A stretch of DNA of 64,000 nucleotides from Actinomycetota bacterium (GTDB lineage: Bacteria > Actinomycetota > Geothermincolia > Geothermincolales > RBG-13-55-18). Made by a program: the position numbers and the translations under genes. The DNA lies in assembly GCA_013178005.1 (NCBI GenBank), contig JABLXL010000005.1:1544-65543 (forward strand), written 5' to 3'. The notes below the pieces were generated by a model. The model made no database searches. It saw only the letters and a list, made by a program, of their open reading frames with translations, and was not told the origin of the DNA. Positions 23,233 to 63,756 of this stretch are shown here, piece after piece. The first letter of the stretch is position 1; every line of letters begins with the position of its first letter.

Positions 23233-23682
23233 ACTCGGTTCAGCCGCTTCCACGGCATGGGTGACCGCGCAGGTAGTAGGTTAGCGCGGCGGTGTCCCGA
23301 CATCACGACGGAACGTAGATAGGCCTTGGGCCGCGCCGGAGAAAGCGCGCCTCCCTCGGCATGCCAGATCTTGAAGCCTCCCGGCCTCTTTTGAACGGTA
23401 GATTTCACTCCCTCGAAGTGTTATCGAGCGGAACGCTTTTCCACCCGCTCCATCCGACGCCCGGTGCGACCTACCGCAAAGCAGCGAGCCCCCTTCCCGG
23501 ACTCCTCCGCCTCGGCCAAGTCCTCGGCGGTGGGCGCCAGGTTGACGCGCAGTGGCTACTCCTCCACCCTGAACCCAGGGCGCTTCGGCCATTAGGGCTC
23601 CTCAAGAGGATCGGGACAATGAGGCCGCGGGACACCCGGATTCATTTGCCGTCCCGCGGCCCACTGTTACCGTAATGCGGCG

Positions 23683-24867
23683 TTACAGGGAGAGCGCCAG
23701 CCGCCTCCCGAACTCCTCCGCCTCGGCCAGGTCCTCGGCGGTAGGCACCAGGTTGACGCGCAGGGGCTCCTCCTCCACCCTGAACTTGAGGCCCTTAAGC
23801 CGCTCGGCTATGAGCTTGGGGGCCTCGCCGCTCCAGCCGTAGGAGCCGAAGGAAGCGCCCACCTTCCCCCTGAGGTTCAGGGTGGCGAGGTGGGAGAGCA
23901 GGTACCACACCGGCTCCACCGCGTCCCCGTTGATGGTGGCGGATCCGACCGCGATGCCGTCCGCCGCCTCGATGCGGTCTATCATCAACCCCAGCTCGGT
24001 GGCCGTGATGTCCATGACCGCCACCCGCGCGCCCCCGGAGCGCGCCCCTTCGGCGATCTTTTCCGCCAGGGCGGCGGTGTTGCCGTAGGCGCTGGCGTAG
24101 AAGACCAGCAGGCTCTTCTCCCCCGTCGGCTCCGGCACCGAGCTCCAGGCGCGGTACTTCTCCACGCAGGCCCAGGGGTCCTTGCGCAGCACCGGGCCGT
24201 GGCTGGTGGCGACGACCTTTATGTCCAGGTCCTTTATCTTGTCGATGGCCTCCAGCACGTACTTCTTGAAGGGCCGGAAAATGACCATGTAGTAGTACTC
24301 GAAGGCGTGGGAGTAATCGTTCACCAGGTCGTCGAAGATGCGGTCGTCGCAGTAATGCGCCCCCAGGAAGTCACAGGTGAAGAGAACGCCGTCTTTCCGG
24401 TAATAGGTGAACATGGTATCCGGCCAGTGCAAAAACGGCGCGTGGACGAAGCGCAGCTCCGCCCCTCCCCCGAGGTCTAGGGTGTCCCCGTCCTGGACCA
24501 ACAGGGGGTCCACGTCGCGGTTGAGGATGTTCTTCACGAAGTTCCTGCATTGCCGGTCGCAAACCACCCTGGCGTTGGGCGCGTCCTCGAGAAAGCGCGC
24601 CAGTGAGCCGGAATGGTCCGGCTCGGTGTGGTTGACGACGACGTAGGAGATGTCTTTCAAGTCGACCAGGGAACTTATGTTCTCCAGGAAGTCTTCGTAG
24701 AACGGAGCCTTGACCGTATCGACCACGGCGATCTTGTCCCCGCCGGTGATAAGGTAGGCGTTGTAGGTGGTGCCGTGGTCAGCCTTCATAATGATGTCGA
24801 ATACCCGTAGCTGGGGGTCAAGGGCCCCCACCCAGTGAACCCCCTCGCTGATCCTCACCGGCAGCAT
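23683..24867 (-). CDS. A-type flavodiiron protein (FprA / rubredoxin:oxygen oxidoreductase family)
   Basis: Metallo-beta-lactamase-like diiron site (HTEPDHSG) plus a C-terminal flavodoxin domain (LLVFYASAYGNT). Confidence 0.85.
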   Translation of the reverse strand: MLPVRISEGVHWVGALDPQLRVFDIIMKADHGTTYNAYLITGGDKIAVVDTVKAPFYEDFLENISSLVDLKDISYVVVNHTEPDHSGSLARFLEDAPNARVVCDRQCRNFVKNILNRDVDPLLVQDGDTLDLGGGAELRFVHAPFLHWPDTMFTYYRKDGVLFTCDFLGAHYCDDRIFDDLVNDYSHAFEYYYMVIFRPFKKYVLEAIDKIKDLDIKVVATSHGPVLRKDPWACVEKYRAWSSVPEPTGEKSLLVFYASAYGNTAALAEKIAEGARSGGARVAVMDITATELGLMIDRIEAADGIAVGSATINGDAVEPVWYLLSHLATLNLRGKVGASFGSYGWSGEAPKLIAERLKGLKFRVEEEPLRVNLVPTAEDLAEAEEFGRRLALSL

Positions 24868-24918
24868 GCCGTACCTCCCGTCTGTTCTATTCTCCGCCTT
24901 GCCTCGCGCCGGCGCCGT

Positions 24919-25077
24919 CTAAACCTTCTCGAACATGTCCTTGTCGGCGCCGCACTGCGGGCATACCCAGTCGTCCGGCAGGTCCTCGAAGGCGGTGCCC
25001 GGAGCTATTCCGGCGTCGGGGTCTCCCTTCTCGGGGTCATAGACGTATCCGCAGATGGTGCACTCGTACTTGTCCAT
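24919..25077 (-). CDS. rubredoxin
   Basis: 52 aa with two CxxCG knuckles (CTICGY, CPQCGA) and the conserved YxxW/DLPDDW motif. Confidence 0.85.
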
Positions 25078-25405
25078 GCTCTTCCTCCTCTTTCGCTTTC
25101 CGGCGGTAACCGAACCAAAACGACGGTTTTCTATAATATACCCGCGAGGAGAGGAATATATCGTGATATATATACTTTGACATATGGCTCGACGCGCAGC
25201 CCGCGATGCGAGCGACCGCGTGGCCTTCCCGCCGGCATGGTCGGCGGGAGGACCAGCGACACGAGGCTTTGGCGAGCGCATGGCGGCACCGGCCTGGCGC
25301 GACTATGGGAGCTTTGGCGCCGGGCGGAGGCCAGCTTCCGAAACCGGGGCCGACAACCGGGAGCCGGGACGGTTTGCGACACGAAGTAAGGGAGACGTTG
25401 AAGCG

Positions 25406-26422
25406 ATGGGAGACGTGAAAAGCGTGGCGTGGTTCTGCGCCTACACTCCCCTGGAGATCCTGGACGCCGCGGGGCTCGCGCCCGTGCGCCGGTTCGGCGA
25501 CCCCGCGAGCCTGGAGGCCGCCGACGCCGTCCTGCACCAGGCCATCTGCCCTTACGTCCGCGCCTGCCTGGCGGCGGCCATGGACGGAAGCGCGCCGACG
25601 CCAGGGGATAACCATCACCATGCCGTCTTCGTCAATTCCTGCGACGGCATGCGCCGGCTGCACGACGCCTGGCAAGCGCGCTTCCCGAAGGACTTCGTCT
25701 TCCTCATGGACCTGCCGCGCAACGAGGATTCCGCGGGAGAACGCCTCCTGGCGGGGGAATTCGTCCGCCTGGCCGAGGCCCTGGAGGCCTTCACGGGAAG
25801 CGCCATTGGAGCGCACGCCCTGCTGGAAGCCGCGCGCGGGCGAGAGGAGCGGCGCCTCGCCTACCTGGAAAGCTCTCGCGGCCTGTCCGGTGCGGGGCGC
25901 CTGCGCCTTGCCATGGCTTTCCAGTCCTCGCCCGCCACAGAAAAGCCGGTGCCGGGAACGGGGGTGGCGCGGGCAGGCGGCGTGCCCGTGCTCCTCACCG
26001 GGAATCTCCTCAACCCGGAGGGCCTGGTATCGGTGCTGGAGGAAGCGGGCGCCGCGGTGGTGCGCGTGGACCTGTGCAACGGCGACCGCGCCTTCTCCTC
26101 CCCCATCCTGGCCACGGGGGACGGCCTCGAGGAGGTATGCCTCTCGCTTGCCCGGGGATACCTAGATCGCAGGCCTTGCGCGCGCATGACGGACGCGCGC
26201 CGGCGCCTGGACCTGCTGGTGGAGGAGGTGCGGGAGACGGGGGCGCGAGGGATCATCTACGCCGGCCTGAAGTTCTGCGACTCCTACCTTTACGATTTTC
26301 CCCGCGTGCAGAGGAGGCTACGGGAGGAAGGCGTCCCACTGTTGCGCCTGGAGAGCGACTACGCCGACGGACACGTGGGCCAGCTCCTCACCCGCGTGGA
26401 GGCTTTCCTGGAGATGATATGA
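25406..26422 (+). CDS. 2-hydroxyacyl-CoA dehydratase / benzoyl-CoA-reductase BcrBC-family subunit (HGD-D family), smaller subunit
   Basis: HGD-D family cysteine pattern (FCAYTPLE..., C..C clusters). ATG with an AAGGGAG RBS. Co-directional with the next subunit. Confidence 0.65.
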   Translation: MGDVKSVAWFCAYTPLEILDAAGLAPVRRFGDPASLEAADAVLHQAICPYVRACLAAAMDGSAPTPGDNHHHAVFVNSCDGMRRLHDAWQARFPKDFVFLMDLPRNEDSAGERLLAGEFVRLAEALEAFTGSAIGAHALLEAARGREERRLAYLESSRGLSGAGRLRLAMAFQSSPATEKPVPGTGVARAGGVPVLLTGNLLNPEGLVSVLEEAGAAVVRVDLCNGDRAFSSPILATGDGLEEVCLSLARGYLDRRPCARMTDARRRLDLLVEEVRETGARGIIYAGLKFCDSYLYDFPRVQRRLREEGVPLLRLESDYADGHVGQLLTRVEAFLEMI

Positions 26423-26662
26423 GCAGGGCGATGGGGAGTATGTCGCGGAGCGGGAGGATAAGATGGGACTGGTCGAGGACGTAAGGGACCGCTACGTAGG
26501 CAGTATCTCAGCCGCCAATTTGAATCACACGGCTTAATCAAGGGTGACTCTAGAGGACGTGGGTATTGGGGAGAAGAGAAGTGGAAGAGGGCAAGTCTCG
26601 GTCTTTCCTTGAGATGATATGAGCAGGGCGATGGGGAGTATGTCGCGGAGCGGGAGGATAAG

Positions 26663-27919
26663 ATGGGACTGGTCGAGGACGTAAGGGACCGCTACATAGA
26701 GAAGCTGTCGCCCGGCACCTTCCGATCCCGCGTGTTCTGGAAAACTGTGGAAACCCTCGCGCGCTCGCCCCTCAACCGCCCGCAGTGGAAAGCCGACCGC
26801 GTCTCGCTCTCCTACTTCATACGCGCCACGCGCGACGCCTACCTGCGGCGCGCGCCGGTGGTGTGGAGCAACCTACTGGTCCCCAGCGAGCTCATCCTGG
26901 GCTCGGGATGCATCCCCTTCTACCCCGAGATGGCCGCGGCGGTGGTGGCCTCGGCGGGGCTCGCGCCGCGCTTCATCGACCGCGCCGGCGAGGAAGGATT
27001 TTCCTCCGACGCCTGTTCCTACCACCGCTGCGTGCTGGGATGCGCCCTGGATGGTTTCCTGCCCGAGCCGGACCTCCTGCTCACCGTCAATTACCCCTGC
27101 GATTCCGCCCCCCTTTCCTTCTCCTTCGCCTCCGATCTCTACGGCGCGCCTCACCGCGTCCTCGACGTTCCCCTCCACGAGGACCGCGAGTCCCTGGGCG
27201 TCCTGGCGGAGCAGATGGAGGAGGCGGCGGCTTTCATGCTCTCCCTCTCCGGCCTAACGGCGGAGGAGGGCGGTGATAAGCTGCGGGAGGCCCTCGGCTT
27301 CTCCAACCTCGCGTTGCGCCACATGCGGCGGGTGGAGGAGCTCCGCAAGCGCGACGACTGCACCCTAGACGGCAAGGACGCCATGGGAGGGATCAGCGTG
27401 CTTGCGGGGAGCATGGGCTCGCGCGAGGGGGCGGAGTACTACCGCCTGCTGGCCGACGAGCTCGAGGAGAGGGGTTGCGCGGGCGGCGGAGCGATCCGCC
27501 TCATGTGGATGCACCTCAAGCCTTGGTACGCCCAGGGCATCTTCGACGCCCTGGAGCGCCATGGAGCCCGCCTGGTCTGCGAGGAATACACCCACGCCAC
27601 GTGGGAGGAGCTGAACGCAGCGGAGCCCTACGCGTCCCTTGCCCAAAAAGTGGCGGGGCATTTCCTGGTGGGGCCGGCGGAGAGGCGGGCGCGCCATCTC
27701 GCCCGCCTGGCACAGGACTACCGCGTGGACGGGGCCATCCATTACAACCACTGGGGCTGCCGGCAGAGCTGCGGGGGAGCCATGCTGGTCAAGGAGGCCC
27801 TGCAGGGGATCGGGGTTCCGGTGCTGACCATCGACGGCGACTGCGTGGACGAGCGCGAGTACCAGGAGGGACAGCTCTCCACCCGCCTGGAGGCCTTCCT
27901 GGAATCCCTCAAGGCCTAG
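26663..27919 (+). CDS. 2-hydroxyacyl-CoA dehydratase-family subunit (HGD-D family), larger subunit
   Basis: HGD-D family similarity throughout (YHRCVLGC..., IHYNHWGCRQ). No activator (HgdC-like ATPase) is present in the window. Confidence 0.65.
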   Translation: MGLVEDVRDRYIEKLSPGTFRSRVFWKTVETLARSPLNRPQWKADRVSLSYFIRATRDAYLRRAPVVWSNLLVPSELILGSGCIPFYPEMAAAVVASAGLAPRFIDRAGEEGFSSDACSYHRCVLGCALDGFLPEPDLLLTVNYPCDSAPLSFSFASDLYGAPHRVLDVPLHEDRESLGVLAEQMEEAAAFMLSLSGLTAEEGGDKLREALGFSNLALRHMRRVEELRKRDDCTLDGKDAMGGISVLAGSMGSREGAEYYRLLADELEERGCAGGGAIRLMWMHLKPWYAQGIFDALERHGARLVCEEYTHATWEELNAAEPYASLAQKVAGHFLVGPAERRARHLARLAQDYRVDGAIHYNHWGCRQSCGGAMLVKEALQGIGVPVLTIDGDCVDEREYQEGQLSTRLEAFLESLKA

Positions 27920-28061
27920 GGGTCAAGGCTGGCCATCGGCCTAAGGTAGTCCTAGGCCTAGGGGTCAAGGCTGGCCATCGGCCTAAGGTATACATCCTTT
28001 GCTTTTTAGGCCTAGGGGTCAATTAGGCCTAGGGGTCAAGGCTGGCCATCGGCCTAAGGTA
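27913..28061. repeat. three tandem REP-like palindromic repeats (AGGCCTAGGGGTCAAGGCTGGCCATCGGCCTAAGGTA)
   Basis: Three near-identical roughly 37-bp units with irregular spacers (5 and about 34 bp). They overlap the hgdA-like stop and the transposase stop. Confidence 0.8.
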
Positions 28062-29070
28062 TACATCCTTTGCTTTTAAGAATCTGCAGAACGCCCGCCT
28101 CGTCGGCAAGCAGCCTTGCCCGCATCCCCTTATCCTCATCTAAGCACTTGTTGAATCTCAAGTAGCGATGTGAGGCAGCGTTTTCCTTAATCCCGCCTAT
28201 CACCTTTGCGATATCGTCGAAAGAGGTGAGAGTATATTCCCTAGCCATATGGATAAGTAAATTACATGCATAACGATATCTCTTGTCTGCCCGATAGCTC
28301 CCATGCTCCAGGCTGTCTATCCCGAGATGCTCGCAAATAGCTTCTAGAACCTCGTCGAGGGAGGGGATCCTCGTCAATTCTTTATGCCCAATCAAACCCT
28401 TAGACCATTTTTCTTGCCTTATGCTTGCTTTGATTCGCCTGAGAAATGCATCGCTGCCCAGAAGCGCCTGTGCAACGACTTTGTGATCAGAAGGATAATT
28501 ATTTTCCTCTCCTAAGGCATTCTCGACAAAAGCCTGATATTCCCTGCCAGCTGGCTCGCTGCCACAGCCAAAATACTCCTCCAGCCATGATGAATCGAAC
28601 CAGCCCCCAGCGGTTCCATTGATGCAATCGCGATAGTTTGACCAGTTATAATCCTCAGGCCGTTCGACCACGCCCGCCTCCACAGGGTTTAGGTGGATAT
28701 AGCGGTTGACGATGAGGAAATACTCCTCTTCGTCTATGCGGATCGCCTTGTACCTGCCGGCAAACACATGTCCCACCCAACCGCCCCTGACAAGGAAGTT
28801 CGCATACGACGAGCCGAGAAAATGCATAAATTCGTGCAGGTTCTCAATGGTGATACGTAGCGAGAGGTGATAGTGATTATCCATGATGCAGAACGCGAAG
28901 ATGTCGATCATGTATTTTTGCGCTCCTCTGCACAGGAGATCGAGGAAATATTTCTTGTGGCTCTCCCCTGTCAGGATATCAAGCTTGAGGTTTCCGCGGG
29001 AGAACACATGAAACACTGCTCCCTTTTCCTGAATTCTTAATGTTCTAGTCATGACCATTATTATAACCAT
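28054..29070 (-). CDS. IS200/RAYT-like HUH tyrosine (Y1) transposase with a C-terminal extension
   Basis: HuH motif HYHLSL and catalytic-Tyr region (AGRYKA). Low GC relative to its surroundings. Confidence 0.7.
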   Translation of the reverse strand: MVIIMVMTRTLRIQEKGAVFHVFSRGNLKLDILTGESHKKYFLDLLCRGAQKYMIDIFAFCIMDNHYHLSLRITIENLHEFMHFLGSSYANFLVRGGWVGHVFAGRYKAIRIDEEEYFLIVNRYIHLNPVEAGVVERPEDYNWSNYRDCINGTAGGWFDSSWLEEYFGCGSEPAGREYQAFVENALGEENNYPSDHKVVAQALLGSDAFLRRIKASIRQEKWSKGLIGHKELTRIPSLDEVLEAICEHLGIDSLEHGSYRADKRYRYACNLLIHMAREYTLTSFDDIAKVIGGIKENAASHRYLRFNKCLDEDKGMRARLLADEAGVLQILKSKGCIP

Positions 29071-29328: not shown

Positions 29329-29362
29329 TTGGCCTTAGGCCGATGGCCAGCCTTGACCCCCA
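29329..29362. repeat. REP-like repeat in inverted orientation (right boundary of the transposase unit)
   Basis: CCTTAGGCCGATGGCCAGCCTTGACCCC is the reverse complement of the 27913-28061 units. Confidence 0.8.
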
Positions 29363-29469
29363 GGCCAGTCCCCCAGGCTACCAGGCCTTAATGCATGGGG
29401 CGGTGGGAGACGGTAAAATGAGATAGCTGTTCTGGTCACGCTTCGGTTCTCGCCCGGGAGGTGTTCGAG

Positions 29470-33280: not shown

Positions 33281-33425
33281 TCCTTAGGCCGGGCCTCAGA
33301 CCTGAATAGGCCCTCGATTCGAATTCCGGGCCTGACCCCCGGACCTCAGGCCGATGGCCAGCCCTGACCCCCAGGCCACGGGCCTCAGGCCGATGGCCAG
33401 CCCTGACCCCAAGGCCTGAGGGGAA
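33281..33425. repeat. cluster of REP-like repeats (variants of GGCCGATGGCCAGCCCTGACCCC), at least two full copies
   Basis: Same family as the units flanking the RAYT element, about 4 kb away. They lie immediately upstream of a truncated-looking GyrI-like ORF. Confidence 0.7.
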
Positions 33426-37989: not shown

Positions 37990-38470
37990 TCGGGCTTGGC
38001 CTACTCCCCGGCTACATCCGTTATCGGCCCGGGCCGGGCTGGCGGGCAAGAGCTGAAAACACGGGAAGGGCGGCCCTTGTTTCGTGACTTAAACGGAATT
38101 CCAGCCCACTGGCTCTGGGCTTTATCAACCCCTCGGCCACGTCCTCGTTCACCCGGGCCGGGCCGTGGGGCAAAAGTTGAAACATGGGAAGGGCGGCCCT
38201 TGTTTCGTGACTGGAACGGATTTACCAACCACCCGGCTTCGGGCTTGATCTGCCCCTCGGCTATATTCGTCATCAGCCCGAGCCGGGCCGGCGGGCGGAG
38301 ATGGGGAGCCTCCAGTCGCGGCCGAAGGCGCGGGGGGTGATCTTTATCCCCACCGGGGCCTGGCGGCGCTTGTACTCGTTGGCGTCCACGCGCCGCACCA
38401 CCTCCTCCACCAGCGCGCGGTCGTTCCCCGAGGCGGCCATCTCCTCCACCGCGAAGCAGTCCTCGATACC
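37990..38470. repeat. left copy of a roughly 480-bp duplicated block: tandem ~125-bp structured sub-repeats plus a pseudo-copy of the nadE 3' end
   Basis: 38282-38470 matches 40360-40550 (the nadE 3' end); near-identical for about 95 bp, then diverging. Preceded by units ending ...GGGCCGGGC(T)GGCGGGC-AAGAGCTGAAAACA-GGGAAGGGCGGCCCTTGTTTC. Confidence 0.8.
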
Positions 38471-40042: not shown

Positions 40043-40360
40043 CCCGGGACGGATTTCCGAGCTCCCGGCCATGGCGGGGAGTTGACCCCTTCGGCTTCCT
40101 CCCTCGCCCACCCCGGTCAGGTCATAGGGCAGAAACTGACAGCATGGAAGGAAAGCCATTACATCCTGCTTGGAACTGATTTCCAGCCCACTGGCTGCGG
40201 GTTTGATCGACCCTTCGGCCGTATCCGTTATCCGCCCGGGCCGGCGGGCAAGAGCTGAAAACATGGGAAGGGCGGCCCTTGTTTCCTGACTGGAACAGAT
40301 TCCCAACTCCCGGCTCCGGGCTTAATCGATCCCTCGGCCGTATCCGTCATCCGCCTGGGC
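40043..40360. repeat. right-hand set of tandem ~110-125-bp structured sub-repeats immediately downstream of nadE
   Basis: Units share ...ATCGA-CC-TCGGCCGTATCCGT-ATCCGCC-GGGCCGGGC-GGCGGGC. One unit carries the AAGAGCTGAAAACATGGGAAGGGCGGCCCTTGTTTC hairpin tail. Confidence 0.75.
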
Positions 40361-42125
40361 CGGGCCGGCGGGCGGAGATGGGGAGCCTCCAGTCGCGGCC
40401 GAAGGCGCGGGGGGTGATCTTTATCCCCACCGGGGCCTGGCGGCGCTTGTACTCGTTTGCGTCCACGCGCCGTACCACCTCCTCCACCAGCGCGCGATCA
40501 TGCCCCATGGCGACCATCTCCTCCACCGTAAGGCCGTTCTCGATGTATCCCTCGAGAACGGGATCCAGGAGCTCGTAAGGCGGCAGGGAATCGGTGTCCC
40601 TCTGGCCCTCGCGCAGCTCCGCCGACGGCTCCCTGGAGATGACCGCCTCCGGTATGATTTCCCCGCCCTCCCGCTCGTTGATATAGCCGGCAAGCCGGTA
40701 CACCTCCTTCTTCAGGAGGTCCTTGATCACCGCGAACCCCCCGGCCATGTCGCCGTACAAAGTGCAATACCCCATGGAAAGCTCGCTTTTGTTGCCGGTG
40801 GCCAGCACCAGCCAGCCCCGGCTGTTGGAGACGTTCATGAGCAGGTTGCCCCGGATGCGCGCCTGCAGGTTCTCCATGGCCAGCGATCCGCCAGGACCCT
40901 TCAATGAGGAGCCGGCGGCACCCGCGTAACCTTCCATTATCGCATCGATCTCGAAGACCTCGAGAGAAATCCCTAGGTTACGAGCCAGCGCCTCCGCGAT
41001 CTCGCGGGATAGCTCCGAGGTGAACCTGGAGGGCATGAAGACGGCGTGCACTCTCTCCGGCCCCAGCGCCATGGCGGCTAGGGCGGCGGTGAGGGCGGAG
41101 TCCACGCCTCCCGATAGCCCCAGGACCACGTCGGTGAACCCGTTCTTGCGCACGTAGTCGCGCAACCCGAGCAGCAGCGCCTGGTATATCTCCTCCTCCT
41201 CCTCCCTTTCATGTGTTTCCCCGTACTGCTGTATATTGATGTTAAGGGTCGGGCGCTCTCCCGTGGACGGACCCCGTTGTCCACCCAGATCGACGACCCG
41301 CGTTGGTTCCGGGAGGGCGCCCTTCCTTGCGTACCTGTGCAGTGGCTTGGACATCCTCTCCGCCCATATCCCGGTCAGGTCCAGGTCGCACACCAGGAGG
41401 TGCTCGCGGAAGCGCGGGGAACAAGCGAGTTTTCCCGCCCTCGGATGCACGATCATGGAGCCGCCGTCCAGCACCAGCTCGTCCTGCCCGCCCACGCAGT
41501 TCACATAGGCGACGACCGCGAGGGAGTCGGCGGCCCTGGATTCCACGAGACGCTCGCGTATCCCCTGCTTGCCCCGGTGATACGGCGACGCGGAGATGTT
41601 GACCACCACCTCCGCTCCCCCGTACGCCACCTCCCGCTCCAGCGGACCCCCGGGGTACCAGATGTCCTCGCAGACGGTGATCCCCACGCGCACCCCGGCG
41701 ATGATGGCCACCAGGCCTTCACTCCCGGGCGCGAAGTAACGGTTCTCGTCGAAGACGCCGTAGTTGGGCAGGAAGCGTTTGCGGTAGGTGGCCACCACCT
41801 CTCCGCGGTGGACGAGTGCCGCGGCGTTGAACAAGTCCTCCGCTAGCTCGGGTGTCCCCACCACCATGGGCGTGTCTCCCACCTGACAAGCGAGATCGGC
41901 CAGCGCTGTCCGGCAGTCCTCGAGGAAGTCGCGCTTGAGCAACAGGTCCTCGGGTGGATAACCGCACAGGGCGAGTTCCGGAAAGCACACCAGGTCCGCC
42001 CCCATTCCCTCCGCCTCGCGCAGCGCCTCCAGGATACGCGCGCAGTTCCCACGGAAATCTCCCACCGTGGTGTTCACCTGCGCCAGGGCGATCCTCATCC
42101 CACAGTCACCCGCTTTCGAGGTCAT
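40347..42125 (-). CDS. nadE: glutamine-dependent NAD+ synthetase NadE (N-terminal CN-hydrolase/glutaminase domain plus NAD synthetase domain)
   Basis: Nitrilase-family domain (catalytic E-K-C context ...VCFPELAL...), then the PP-loop SGGVDS of NAD synthetase. An alternative start is at 42098. Confidence 0.85.
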   Translation of the reverse strand: MTSKAGDCGMRIALAQVNTTVGDFRGNCARILEALREAEGMGADLVCFPELALCGYPPEDLLLKRDFLEDCRTALADLACQVGDTPMVVGTPELAEDLFNAAALVHRGEVVATYRKRFLPNYGVFDENRYFAPGSEGLVAIIAGVRVGITVCEDIWYPGGPLEREVAYGGAEVVVNISASPYHRGKQGIRERLVESRAADSLAVVAYVNCVGGQDELVLDGGSMIVHPRAGKLACSPRFREHLLVCDLDLTGIWAERMSKPLHRYARKGALPEPTRVVDLGGQRGPSTGERPTLNINIQQYGETHEREEEEEIYQALLLGLRDYVRKNGFTDVVLGLSGGVDSALTAALAAMALGPERVHAVFMPSRFTSELSREIAEALARNLGISLEVFEIDAIMEGYAGAAGSSLKGPGGSLAMENLQARIRGNLLMNVSNSRGWLVLATGNKSELSMGYCTLYGDMAGGFAVIKDLLKKEVYRLAGYINEREGGEIIPEAVISREPSAELREGQRDTDSLPPYELLDPVLEGYIENGLTVEEMVAMGHDRALVEEVVRRVDANEYKRRQAPVGIKITPRAFGRDWRLPISARRPGPGG

Positions 42126-55519: not shown

Positions 55520-56217
55520 CCATGGAGACGCGCGGCACTTTGGAAGGGGAAGAGAAGGTCGAGCGCGGAGGCGGACCCGCCCAGGGGGATGCGGGAGAGG
55601 TCGGGAGAGGGACGCGTGGGGCCTTCCTGCCCCTGGAGGACCTCCTCTACTGGATGGAGAGGGAGGAGGGCTGCGATTCGGAGCCGCTCGGTTACCTTGG
55701 AGCCCACTTCCCCACCGGCTGCCGCTACTGCATCTGAGGCCGGGCGCCACGCCGGATGGAAGCCAGGCGACTGGGGGGATTCGCGTAAATCGGTTTCGAC
55801 ATCCATATATTACCATCCTGGTACTTGGTATAGGCGGGCGGCGGGAGATCGCGCCTCGGGGTGTTGCGGCATACAGCAAGGAGCGGGCACCCGCGCCTAT
55901 TCTGGCCAGGCATTCGGAAGCCGCCATCAAAGTGCCGGGCTTAGGCGGGGGAGGGGGATGGCGGAACATGGCACCGAGGCAATTAAGCCCCACTCGGGTT
56001 CGTGCGTGGATTCGGGGCAGGCATTTGGAAGCCGCCATCCAAGCACTGGGCTTACGCGAAGGGCGGTGGGATCGCGGAGCATGGCGCCGAGCTAATTCAG
56101 CCCGACTCCAGCTCGCGCGTAGATCGGGGTGATTCGTGGAACCCGGGGCGGACGCGTTCCTGGCTTGCGGTGGTTTAACCCGCAAGGAAAGCGGGCAAAA
56201 ATAGAGCAGGGGAGCCA

Positions 56218-62100: not shown

Positions 62101-62406
62101 TTCGCCAAGCGGCTTTCGCCGCCCGCATGCAGCTGCCGTACGAAAGGGCGCGGGATCCCGCGCCCTTTTCCTTGCCCTGCCATTTAGTCCCGCACTTGAT
62201 GCATCCCTGGGCGGCATCGCCGAGGGGGCGCCGGTCGGGCGCTCCCGCTTTCTCACCGGACCTCGCGGCCGGCATGAATGCCGTCCTCATGCTCCGCCAG
62301 CGACTCTATGGTGCCGTCCAGCCCGCAGGAGGCGGTGGTGTGCTCCGCCGGAACCATACCGCTCGGTCCGGTGGCGCCGTGCCTCGCGACAGGCGGGAAA
62401 ACAGCC

Positions 62407-63756
62407 TCAATGCTCCGCCAGCGACTCTATGGTGCCGTCCAGCCCGCAGGAGGCGGTGGTCTCCTTGAAGGTGCCCTCCCACATGCCGATGGCCACCGCC
62501 AGCTCCTGGTGGTCCTGGGCGTACTCGTGGATGGGGATTCCGCACATGGTGGCCTCGATGGCCTGGCGGAATGCCCGCGCGCCCGCCGTCGGTCCCATGG
62601 GGTGGGCGTGGATGCCGCCTCCGGAGCCGATCATAATCTCCTTCCCCAGGTCCGCCACGCACACCGGCACCATGTCCGGGGTGATGCCTCCCGAGGGCAT
62701 GGGCATGGTCGGCTTCAGGTTATGCAGGGGATAGTGCATGACGTCGGCGGTGTAGACGAAGCGGTCCTTAAGGTAGGGCGCCTTGCCGTAGGGCGCGGGG
62801 AAGACGATGGCGTCGGCCCCCGCCAGGCGGGGAAGCTTGCCCAGCACCAGGTGGGAGGCGATACCGGAGATGGGCGACTCGTAGAGGGCGCCTGCGCAGT
62901 CCATGTGGGCGAGGATGGGCACGTTGATGTCCGGATCCTCGGCCAGGGTCTGCAGCGCCGGGAGCCCCACCGCCAGGTAATTGACCATGATGGCGTTGGC
63001 GCCGGCGTCCACCACCCGCTTGGCGATCTCGAACATCTTGGGGATGTTGTCCGATATGTTCACCGTGTACAGGGTGTGCTCCCCCGTCTCCTCGTAGACC
63101 CGCTTCTCCATGGCCATGTAAGCCCTGACCCGGTCCTCGCAGCGGTTGAAGGCCATGTCCGCGATGAGCTCGTCGTCCTTGATGACGTCGCACCCGCCCA
63201 GGGCGGCCTCGTAGAAGAGCTTCTCCCCGATCTCGCAGGAGTATCCGGTGCAGGGCTTGATCATGTTATTGAGCAAGGGGCGGTGCTCCTTCATCCCCAG
63301 CGCCTCGTAAATGCCGTCGATGCCGAACTTGGGGCCCCCGAAACCGTCGGTGTAGCTCTTGGGGAACCACAGGTCGATGAGCTTAATCTTTCCACCCATG
63401 GAAATATTTCCCACCACGGCGGTAAGCAGCATGGGGATCTGGTGCTCTATGTTGCGCACGGGGAAGGCCACCTGCACTACGTAGGTCCGCTCCTCCACCT
63501 CCTTGGGCACCTCGAACTCGTAGAAAGGCACCTCGTGGATGGCGATGACCTTGGCCACGTGCTTCGCCCTAACCTCCGGCGTCTCGCCCGGAACCGCGGT
63601 CCAGGTGCCGGTGGACTGCTCCACCGCCAGGAAGGGCGCCAGGTAGTACATGATCATGTCCCTGGGCAGAGCCGCGTAGTAGGTGGCGATGATGAAATCA
63701 TCGTCCTCTATGCCCTCCGGCAAAGCCTTGGGCTGCGCCTCGTAGTACAGCATCAT
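62407..63756 (-). CDS. RuBisCO large-subunit-like protein (probable form IV RLP)
   Basis: RuBisCO fold with K175-like IKP, the carbamylation motif GGCDVIKDDE and SGGGIH. The KPK second Lys is replaced (IKPC) and the R295 equivalent is Met (HMDCAG), consistent with an RLP. Confidence 0.65.
   Translation of the reverse strand: MMLYYEAQPKALPEGIEDDDFIIATYYAALPRDMIMYYLAPFLAVEQSTGTWTAVPGETPEVRAKHVAKVIAIHEVPFYEFEVPKEVEERTYVVQVAFPVRNIEHQIPMLLTAVVGNISMGGKIKLIDLWFPKSYTDGFGGPKFGIDGIYEALGMKEHRPLLNNMIKPCTGYSCEIGEKLFYEAALGGCDVIKDDELIADMAFNRCEDRVRAYMAMEKRVYEETGEHTLYTVNISDNIPKMFEIAKRVVDAGANAIMVNYLAVGLPALQTLAEDPDINVPILAHMDCAGALYESPISGIASHLVLGKLPRLAGADAIVFPAPYGKAPYLKDRFVYTADVMHYPLHNLKPTMPMPSGGITPDMVPVCVADLGKEIMIGSGGGIHAHPMGPTAGARAFRQAIEATMCGIPIHEYAQDHQELAVAIGMWEGTFKETTASCGLDGTIESLAEH

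Follow-up and report, generated by a model that had tools for sequence, protein, structure and literature searches.

We observed that the junction between two genes of an HGD-D-family 2-hydroxyacyl-CoA dehydratase, in an uncultured thermophilic Actinomycetota species, carries a near-perfect direct duplication of 97 nt, the two copies of which flank 103 nt of unrelated DNA. Both subunit genes remain intact. On balance, we favour the explanation that this is a genuine, lineage-specific structural mutation of 200 bp, left when filler DNA was captured in a single event of break repair or template switching. The positions given below are those of the window, the whole stretch of 64,000 nucleotides that was analysed.

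The duplicated gene junction and its insert

The two copies (Table 1) lie 200 nt apart from start to start and differ at two positions: G at 26410 versus T at 26610, and G at 26496 versus A at 26696. One of the mismatches is synonymous and the other is an Ile/Val change, and their distances from the insert are 4 and 8 nt. Between the mismatches lies an exact core of 85 nt (26411–26495 and 26611–26695), the two cores being separated by 115 nt, and the likeness breaks off sharply at each end of the copies. None of the 100 dinucleotide-preserving shuffles gave two matches. The near-perfect duplication of ~95 bp named in the original prediction is real; its coordinates (26406–26496 and 26608–26698) and the insert length of ~105 bp were a few bases off.

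Table 1. Positions of the features at the dehydratase gene junction in the window
Feature	Position	Strand	Remarks
Gene 1, dehydratase subunit of the HGD-D family (338 aa)	25406..26422	+	Pfam PF06050, E=1e-62
Repeat copy 1	26403..26499	+	Working 3′ end and stop codon of gene 1, followed by redundant gene 2 spacer/RBS/start
Decoy start, 24-codon ORF MGLVEDVRDRYVGSISAANLNHTA	26463..26537	+	Direct reading and translation
Orphan insert, non-coding in character	26500..26602	.	103 nt, 51% GC (window 64%)
Repeat copy 2	26603..26699	+	Pseudo 3′ end of gene 1, then functional spacer, RBS (26652–57) and gene 2 start
Gene 2, dehydratase subunit of the HGD-D family (418 aa), intact	26663..27919	+	Pfam PF06050, E=1e-68; starts in copy 2

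Each copy holds the final 20 nt of subunit 1 with its TGA (26420–26422 in copy 1), a 40-nt spacer with GGGAGG (26452–26457 in copy 1), and the ATG of subunit 2 (26463 in copy 1) followed by 34 nt more. Codons 1–11 of subunit 2 are the same in both copies, whereas the twelfth reads GTA in copy 1 and ATA in copy 2. Direct reading thus bears out the content expected for the repeat, namely the stop of subunit 1, the RBS and the first 11 codons of subunit 2. As gene 1, whose final 20 nt lie inside copy 1, is finished there and gene 2 begins anew in copy 2, nothing is broken; the spacer from gene to gene is now 240 nt instead of 40. The second-subunit start in copy 1 does run into the insert, as had been foreseen, and its frame stops at a TAA at 26535–26537. 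Its GGGAGG and ATG are both unbroken, and its 24 codons are below the length that homology testing needs and imply no function. We considered an N-terminal extension of subunit 2, or a read-through from subunit 1, and rejected both on the in-frame stops at 26615–26617 and 26459–26461.

Orthologues of gene 1 are also called at 338 aa, the exact gene 1 protein is present on 4 other contigs, and the gene 2 protein is 96% identical to the protein P0001 over the full length. An exact look-up of subunit 2 and of the flavodiiron protein in a protein collection found neither on record, so the window's own assembly is absent from that collection. The neighbours encode, by Pfam, rubredoxin, the flavodiiron protein, a Y1_Tnp protein, an ABC transporter and signalling proteins.

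A plain tandem duplication, even a diverged one, was rejected, as neither the preceding nor the following 103 nt are related to the insert. Likeness across the full 200-nt period was not found, and Tandem Repeats Finder did not report the region.

The insert is an orphan. Its GC content agrees with the ~50% estimated at the outset, and the TCTAGA seen there lies at 26549–26554. Even with as many as 3 mismatches allowed, we found no second copy of it in the 64-kb window, the best local alignment being at chance level, and no exact match in the genome, metagenome and viral scans. The BLAST check of the insert alone, which had been proposed, gave nothing against 72,556 plasmids and only chance matches of 27–33 nt against phages; the longest match to common adapters was 7 nt. 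Exact identity to the pUC polylinker over 12 nt, GACTCTAGAGGA, was judged to be chance. With no extended match to vector or adapter, nor to phiX-type phage, such an origin of the insert was rejected.

As a coding fragment the insert is ruled out by its GC3, which is ~0.5 across the six frames compared with 0.82–0.90 in the neighbouring genes; its two open frames had no match among 5.8 billion proteins. An RNA element, riboswitch or leader was rejected likewise, as the sequence belongs to no Rfam family (best E-value 0.71, far below the gathering score) and its fold is no more stable than that of shuffled sequence (z-scores of +1.32 and +0.52). Neither a promoter nor a terminator consensus was found.

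Mobile-element features are also absent: the structure has no terminal inverted repeats, no second insert copy and no nearby integrase. No inverted repeat involves 26500–26602, and the ends of the insert, GCAGTATCTC... and ...AGTCTCGGT, are not complementary. Among the 15 ORFs checked with Pfam between 14.3 and 37.9 kb, we found no integrase or reverse-transcriptase domain, and the only transposase-like gene was Y1_Tnp (IS200-like, 28054–29070). Known bacterial IS families make target duplications of 2–15 bp and of fixed length. An insertion sequence or MITE was therefore rejected on the 97-bp target duplication, together with the absence of terminal inverted repeats and of other copies in the data scanned. 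A diversity-generating retroelement, in which only the adenines of one copy would be changed, was set aside as well, since the mismatches are G/T and G/A and the ORFs checked hold no reverse transcriptase.

Support from independent assemblies and orthologous loci

An assembly or chimera artefact had been raised as one origin of the duplication. It would mean that a single real junction was doubled by joining overlapping contigs, by a chimeric read, or by placing strain variants in series. The full structure is visible only in this window, and all short-read assemblies of the same strain break at the locus. The two mismatches, one synonymous and one Ile/Val, resemble strain-level variants, and the 12 nt shared with the pUC polylinker point the same way.

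The positions of the breaks, however, are informative. Logan contigs are built at k=31 with each 31-mer kept once. Three of them (L009, L011 and L012, from three runs) are 100% identical to the window and all stop at 26440, which is 26410+30, and a fourth from one of these runs (L013) begins at 26666, which is 26696−30. The end of the last one, 27941 (27911+30), falls at the edge of a different repeat and so checks the k=31 arithmetic. Breaks at 26440 and 26666 would not be expected unless the reads held the core in two different outer contexts. With a simple SNP between strains, the contig would have stopped at 26409, or the SNP would have been popped as a bubble; the break at 26440 requires a second, different left context of the core. 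An NCBI MAG of the same strain also speaks for the structure: a 53-nt repeat elsewhere is resolved in it, while its contig at this locus ends at 26428 within copy 1.

Such breaks were seen in three runs, two of which come from sites on different continents, a Siberian aquifer 2.8 km deep (SRR6186653) and an Indian hot spring (SRR16606022). We count these two as the sites known to be independent and leave SRR28264341 and the NCBI MAG out of the count. The linkage of each copy to the insert is read from this one assembly and the graph break points. The plus-frame partial ORF of the predicted 175-nt middle Logan contig was not on record, and a search with the repeat core in JGI metagenomes and viral contigs gave no contigs of the same species. 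The insert has no extended match to the 72,556 plasmids, phages or common adapters, and the mismatches fall in the non-functional halves of the copies, as a real duplication predicts. Judged from these sequence data, an assembly artefact is unlikely and the duplication appears genuine; to a scaffolding error of the kind described we attach very little probability. Since the locus breaks short-read assemblies of the species, gene callers see truncated subunit genes.

The comparison with orthologous loci, another check that had been suggested, was made with four loci at 96% aa identity (L001–L004) and four at 88% (L005–L008), from two related Actinomycetota lineages. All eight have a single junction without insert, with gaps of 40 or 63 nt between the genes. 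As the relatives have one junction and no insert, the 200 bp (insert plus duplicated target) are a derived gain of this lineage. The polarity of the mismatches can also be read: G at 26410 in copy 1 (CTG, Leu) is found in all orthologues and is ancestral, the T at 26610 being derived, and A at 26696 in copy 2 matches the closest orthologues, the G at 26496 being derived. The functional half of each copy thus retains the base of the closest relatives.

Origin of the duplication

Under the explanation that we favour, the junction of the two co-transcribed subunit genes would have gained 103 bp of unrelated, lower-GC, non-coding DNA and, with it, a second 97-bp copy of the target. In a repair version, nicks in opposite strands ~97 nt apart would have left long overhangs; after fill-in of both, the ends would have been joined with a captured DNA fragment between them. 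In a replication version, the polymerase would have exited at 26499, copied 103 nt elsewhere and re-entered 97 nt upstream. We infer that a single step sufficed. The outcome would be a neutral or near-neutral scar of undemonstrated function, leaving behind a decoy RBS and start with its 24-codon ORF and a dead copy of the last codons of gene 1.

The mismatches bear on this mechanism. If they were later neutral mutations, we estimate the probability that both would fall so near the insert as ~0.016, that is (16/126)^2. That they cluster within 4 and 8 nt of it agrees with synthesis that was error-prone, or with processing of the ends, where the junctions formed. None of the scans revealed where the 103 nt came from, so that templated copying or capture is a proposal, and by the standard of known bacterial processes 97 nt is a long stagger for a break.

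The same arrangement of bases, G..G in copy 1 and T..A in copy 2, equally matches a single crossover between a chromosome carrying G..A and a donor copy carrying T..G. This brings in the main rival, which we hold to be unlikely but still to be weighed: the remnant of an element integrated by recombination, site-specific or Campbell-type, across a long identity segment. A circular DNA with the T..G junction copy would have crossed with the chromosome inside the 85-nt core and given the hybrid copies; a later internal deletion would then have removed all but 103 nt. With the bases of the closest relatives outermost, the pattern is what a crossover in the core predicts. Identity segments of ~50–110 bp have been reported for integrative elements of actinomycetes. 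As in att identity segments (PMC2440964), direct repeats flank foreign, lower-GC DNA here and the target genes are functional. In att-type integration, integrase or other element genes would be sought between or beside the repeats; what we found between them is 103 non-coding nt, and the 15 ORFs at 14.3–37.9 kb include no integrase, excisionase or element gene. So short a remnant would require a second, precisely internal deletion. Furthermore, the target is not a tRNA gene, no carrier of the insert or the core turned up in the viral, plasmid, genome and metagenome scans, and the likeness between the copies ends abruptly on both sides. The gain of 200 bp fits both of the other origins proposed originally, an insertion scar with a long target duplication and a recombination footprint, and the sequence by itself cannot separate them.

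Perfect direct repeats of 85 nt that lie 115 nt apart should be deletion-prone through slipped misalignment. Their survival at distant sites could hint at selection. One may suppose that the insertion was retained as a functional element, in which the decoy RBS, the 24-codon uORF and the 240-nt spacer tune the subunit ratio, or in which the 200 bp act as a reversible switch. The allele is 100% identical in Siberia and India in spite of the deletion-prone repeats, and both GGGAGG and ATG are preserved in the decoy start. Nevertheless, the surrounding region is also 100% identical between the samples, so that this identity does not tell whether the insert is under selection. No signal of RNA structure, no Rfam family and no promoter or terminator consensus was seen, and the relatives manage without the 200 bp. 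We consider such a retained function quite improbable.

Two other gene ends in the window are repeated in a comparable manner. The 3′ end of the flavodiiron gene is repeated 211 nt downstream, in the window and in L001/L002 and not in L005/L007. For a RuBisCO-like gene, a 53-nt exact core of the 3′ end is repeated 121 nt downstream, and an independent MAG contig confirms this repeat. These cases invite the idea of a recurrent process of the lineage, or a tiny element, that copies ~50–100 nt of a gene end again 120–210 nt away with new DNA between. A single shared element behind the three duplications was rejected since their spacers are mutually unrelated. The spacer sizes and repeat lengths also differ, no candidate enzyme was identified, and a generally duplication-prone genome would explain the same facts, plain tandem duplications being present in the clade. 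A recurrent process is therefore improbable in our estimate. It is likewise doubtful that the segments 26403–26699, 23490–23801 and 62256–62465 are footprints of an undescribed process in this actinobacterial lineage, by which ~60–130 nt are inserted and ~50–100 nt of target, often a gene end, are duplicated. Such a process might rest on a tiny element, or on a reaction, driven by an integrase or by repair, whose staggered cuts lie very far apart, and the product could be removable again by recombination between the repeats.

If the repair or template-switch explanation holds, the locus is a clean natural case in which duplication of a long target renders a disruptive insertion between genes harmless, and it shows that a deletion-prone structure can last without change in a thermophile of the subsurface, sampled on two continents. 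If the three gene-end duplications share a mechanism, they would indicate that a source of structural change in slow-growing Actinomycetota has gone unrecognised.

Comparison with known systems

The geometry of repeat, insert and repeat recalls CRISPR spacer acquisition, in which staggered cuts flanking a repeat are filled in, and the likeness is one of geometry only. Here there are just two copies, where an array has three or more, the repeats are of 97 nt as against 23–50 nt, and the insert is of 103 nt; no cas domain occurs among the 15 ORFs scanned with Pfam, and no CRISPR array was found.

A Campbell-type single crossover would likewise leave homology, insert and homology in this order, with the donor variants on the inner sides of the hybrid copies. 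For the present structure, the circular donor would have to measure a mere 200 bp, or else a deletion must have followed.

The likeness to AICEs (pSAM2, SLP1) and to the attL/attR sites of temperate phages lies in the direct repeats, of tens to ~100 bases, that flank foreign DNA; with AICEs the host phylum is also the same. The att repeat of these elements contains the end of a gene, so that the gene works after insertion (PMC2440964). The dehydratase junction differs from them in lacking element genes, in having 103 nt between the repeats, in being a protein-gene junction instead of a tRNA gene, and in that the scans showed no donor.

Filler-DNA or templated insertions are attributed to NHEJ with Ku/LigD in Actinomycetota and to FoSTeS/MMBIR, and are known as NUMT-type captures in eukaryotes. 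Compared with the bacterial events described, the duplication of 97 nt is long, and the likeness to a repair pathway is one of sequence features. In other respects the structure resembles these insertions: short, unrelated DNA is flanked by a target duplication, its blunt boundaries show microhomology hardly or not at all, and point changes are clustered beside the junctions.

Structure of the dehydratase junction

The predicted repeat–insert–repeat arrangement between the two dehydratase subunit genes (gene 1 and gene 2) was correct in content, while its coordinates were off by a few bases; the positions that we obtained are listed in the table. The two copies start 200 nt apart and differ at two sites (G at 26410 but T at 26610, G at 26496 but A at 26696), so that their exact core is 85 nt. 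Two matches to the repeat were found in none of the shuffles of the window. As originally predicted, each copy carries the gene 1 stop, the ribosome-binding site and the gene 2 start: the final 20 nt of gene 1 including TGA, a 40-nt spacer containing GGGAGG, and the gene 2 ATG with the 34 nt after it. The gene 1 stop in use is that of copy 1 and the gene 2 start in use is that of copy 2. The other start opens the truncated frame that had also been foreseen, and the final codons of gene 1 are present as a dead duplicate in copy 2. Both genes are intact despite the duplication-insertion, and they encode paralogous subunits of a 2-hydroxyacyl-CoA dehydratase/benzoyl-CoA reductase-type enzyme.

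Coordinates of the features in the window
Feature	Position	Strand	Remarks
Repeat copy 1	26403-26499		direct repeat, 97 nt
Insert	26500-26602		103 nt between the copies
Repeat copy 2	26603-26699		direct repeat, 97 nt
Gene 1, dehydratase subunit	25406-26422		Pfam HGD-D, E=1e-62
Gene 2, dehydratase subunit	26663-27919		Pfam HGD-D, E=1e-68
24-codon ORF	start codon 26463 (copy 1)		TAA 26535-37, within insert
Y1 (IS200-like) transposase gene	28054-29070	minus	Y1_Tnp and DnaA-C-like domains, lower GC
REP-like repeats, 34-37 nt	27912-28060, 29333-29366, 33343-33417		GGCCTAGGGGTCAAGGCTGGCCATCGGCCTAAGG; direct and inverted, around the transposase gene
Flavodiiron gene	23683-24867	minus	
Flavodiiron 3' end duplication	23490-23590 and 23701-23801		second copy 211 nt downstream, 85% identity
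RuBisCO-like gene	62407-63756	minus	
RuBisCO-like 3' end duplication	62256-62344 and 62377-62465		53-nt exact core, second copy 121 nt downstream

The insert indeed has a lower GC content than the window (51% versus 64%), and its GC3 was ~0.5 in all frames versus 0.82–0.90 in the adjoining genes. We observed no further copy of it in the window, no identical sequence in the collections of genomes, metagenomes and viruses searched, no match of its two open frames to 5.8 billion proteins, and no match in an Rfam search. Its fold was no more stable than that of shuffled sequence, and neither promoter or terminator consensus nor terminal inverted repeats were present in it. A diverged tandem duplication was ruled out, as the insert is unrelated to the flanking 103 nt on the upstream and downstream sides.

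Among the 15 ORFs checked (14.3–37.9 kb), there was no integrase, reverse transcriptase or cas gene, the sole mobile-type gene being the Y1 transposase. Together with the repeats around it, none of them related to the insert, this gene resembles a REP-associated transposase; the ~1.5-kb block of gene and repeats is absent from L001, a contig of a relative. The repeat and insert of the dehydratase junction are outside every mobile-element or RNA family tested.

Contig break points in independent assemblies

The gene 1 protein recurs unchanged on four further contigs, of which three belong to Logan assemblies of SRA runs and the fourth to an NCBI MAG. All four match the window at 100% and stop shortly past gene 1, the three Logan contigs at 26440. 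Logan graphs hold one instance of each 31-mer, and 26440 (26410+30) is the end of the final 31-mer including the G private to copy 1. The contig on the opposite side is accordingly predicted to start at 26666 (26696−30), and L013, a Logan contig of SRR6186653 found with gene 2 minus its first codon, starts exactly there. It stops at 27941 (27911+30), on the border of an unrelated 37-nt repeat, which provides a check on the arithmetic. The break at 26440 implies a second, differing left context from which the core is reached, and that at 26666 also a second right context into which it continues. These break points are not those of a strain SNP at a single-copy locus, which would pop as a bubble or break the contig at 26409. 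In the same-strain NCBI MAG, a 53-nt repeat elsewhere was resolved, and the contig at the dehydratase locus ends at 26428, within copy 1.

The break points thus fit two real contexts of the core and argue, indirectly, against an assembly artefact or chimera, as does the lack of any extended match of the insert to plasmids, phages or adapters, which also disposes of a vector or adapter source. We consider an artefact highly improbable. A 12-nt stretch around TCTAGA (26546-26557, GACTCTAGAGGA) exactly matches the pUC/M13 polylinker (SalI-XbaI-BamHI), and the match extends beyond 12 nt in none of the plasmids searched. As nothing else matches, and as environmental data sets of two continents lend support to the structure, this match is probably due to chance.

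Derived gain and its origin

The nearest proteins of gene 2 are from uncultured Actinomycetota, some named Candidatus Solincola. The comparison with orthologous loci comprised eight contigs, L001-L004 from one 96%-identical relative and L005-L008 from two 88%-identical relatives. All eight had the gene order of the window, a single junction and 40 or 63 intergenic nucleotides, and both flanks aligned with a clean 200-nt gap between them. The insert plus one repeat copy is therefore a later gain, which postdates the split of the window strain from the L001-type lineage (~93% DNA identity).

The G at 26410 is the base of all orthologues, and the A at 26696 is that of the closest ones (C in the more distant L005 and L007). 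The altered bases are located in the functionless halves, at distances of 8 and 4 nt to the insert. As later mutations over ~126 unconstrained positions, both would lie no more than 8 nt away from the insert with a calculated P of ~0.016, and hence we think that the mismatches arose with the duplication-insertion event itself.

The mismatches are in line with an origin in one step, by break repair or template switching, which we infer here; end joining in Actinomycetota and error-prone template switching are its general background. In the case of repair, opposite-strand nicks ~97 nt apart would leave long overhangs, both of which would be filled in before the ends were joined around a captured fragment. 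In the case of replication, the polymerase would quit the template at 26499, copy 103 nt elsewhere and re-enter 97 nt upstream. Either route would involve low-fidelity synthesis or end trimming near the joints.

As the main alternative, a circular DNA bearing a copy of the junction with T and G at the two mismatch sites could have integrated. The G..G and T..A hybrids are exactly what a single crossover in the core yields, and actinomycete integrative elements typically have long identity segments by which the target gene stays intact (PMC2440964). However, a subsequent deletion sparing just 103 nt is needed, and neither an element gene nor a donor was found; we therefore rate integration below the one-step origin, as rather unlikely.

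Other duplications and possible function

The 110-nt spacer of the flavodiiron duplication contains the real stop codon and a hairpin with an 11-bp stem. Duplication and spacer are common to L001/L002 and not found in L005/L007, and are thus older than the gain at the dehydratase junction. Directly downstream of its flavodiiron gene, L005 has a 126-nt unit three times in tandem (1027-1404); in L007, this repeat was not detected in the 148-nt intergenic gap. Clade-wide, the stretch downstream of this gene is prone to duplication. The RuBisCO-like duplication was confirmed at 100% identity in an independent contig, L014, of an NCBI MAG. Its downstream copy is without the T that makes the TGA stop and would continue ...LAEHEDGIHAGREVR*; it may therefore represent the ancestral gene end.

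Plain tandem arrays with units of 113–126 nt are present in the window and its relatives; those of the window have periods of 124 (38028-38296, with related copies near 40193-40544) and 113 (55899-56129). The genome may simply be prone to duplication. The spacers of the three gene-end duplications are mutually unrelated, and one shared, undescribed mechanism behind them seems distinctly improbable.

With 240 nt in place of 40 nt and an additional decoy start, the intergenic spacer could alter the ratio of the subunits. We found no sign of function: structural or regulatory signals were absent, and the relatives do without the 200 nt. The allele of the structure is identical between distant samples, water of a 2.8-km-deep borehole in Siberia (SRR6186653; PMC7509429) and the Sativali hot spring in India (SRR16606022; PMC10787698); as the surrounding kilobases are equally identical, this is uninformative on selection on the insert. 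The same strain was 100% identical over 1.2–2.6 kb (window 23815-27941 versus L009-L013) in the two habitats, and such identity across far-apart sites is remarkable.

The feature at the dehydratase junction is real and derived. Of the readings offered originally, both the insertion scar and the recombination footprint fit it; we favour a neutral scar of duplication and insertion, with filler DNA that matches no source searched. As a new case of a known type of event, it stands out chiefly by the length of its duplication.
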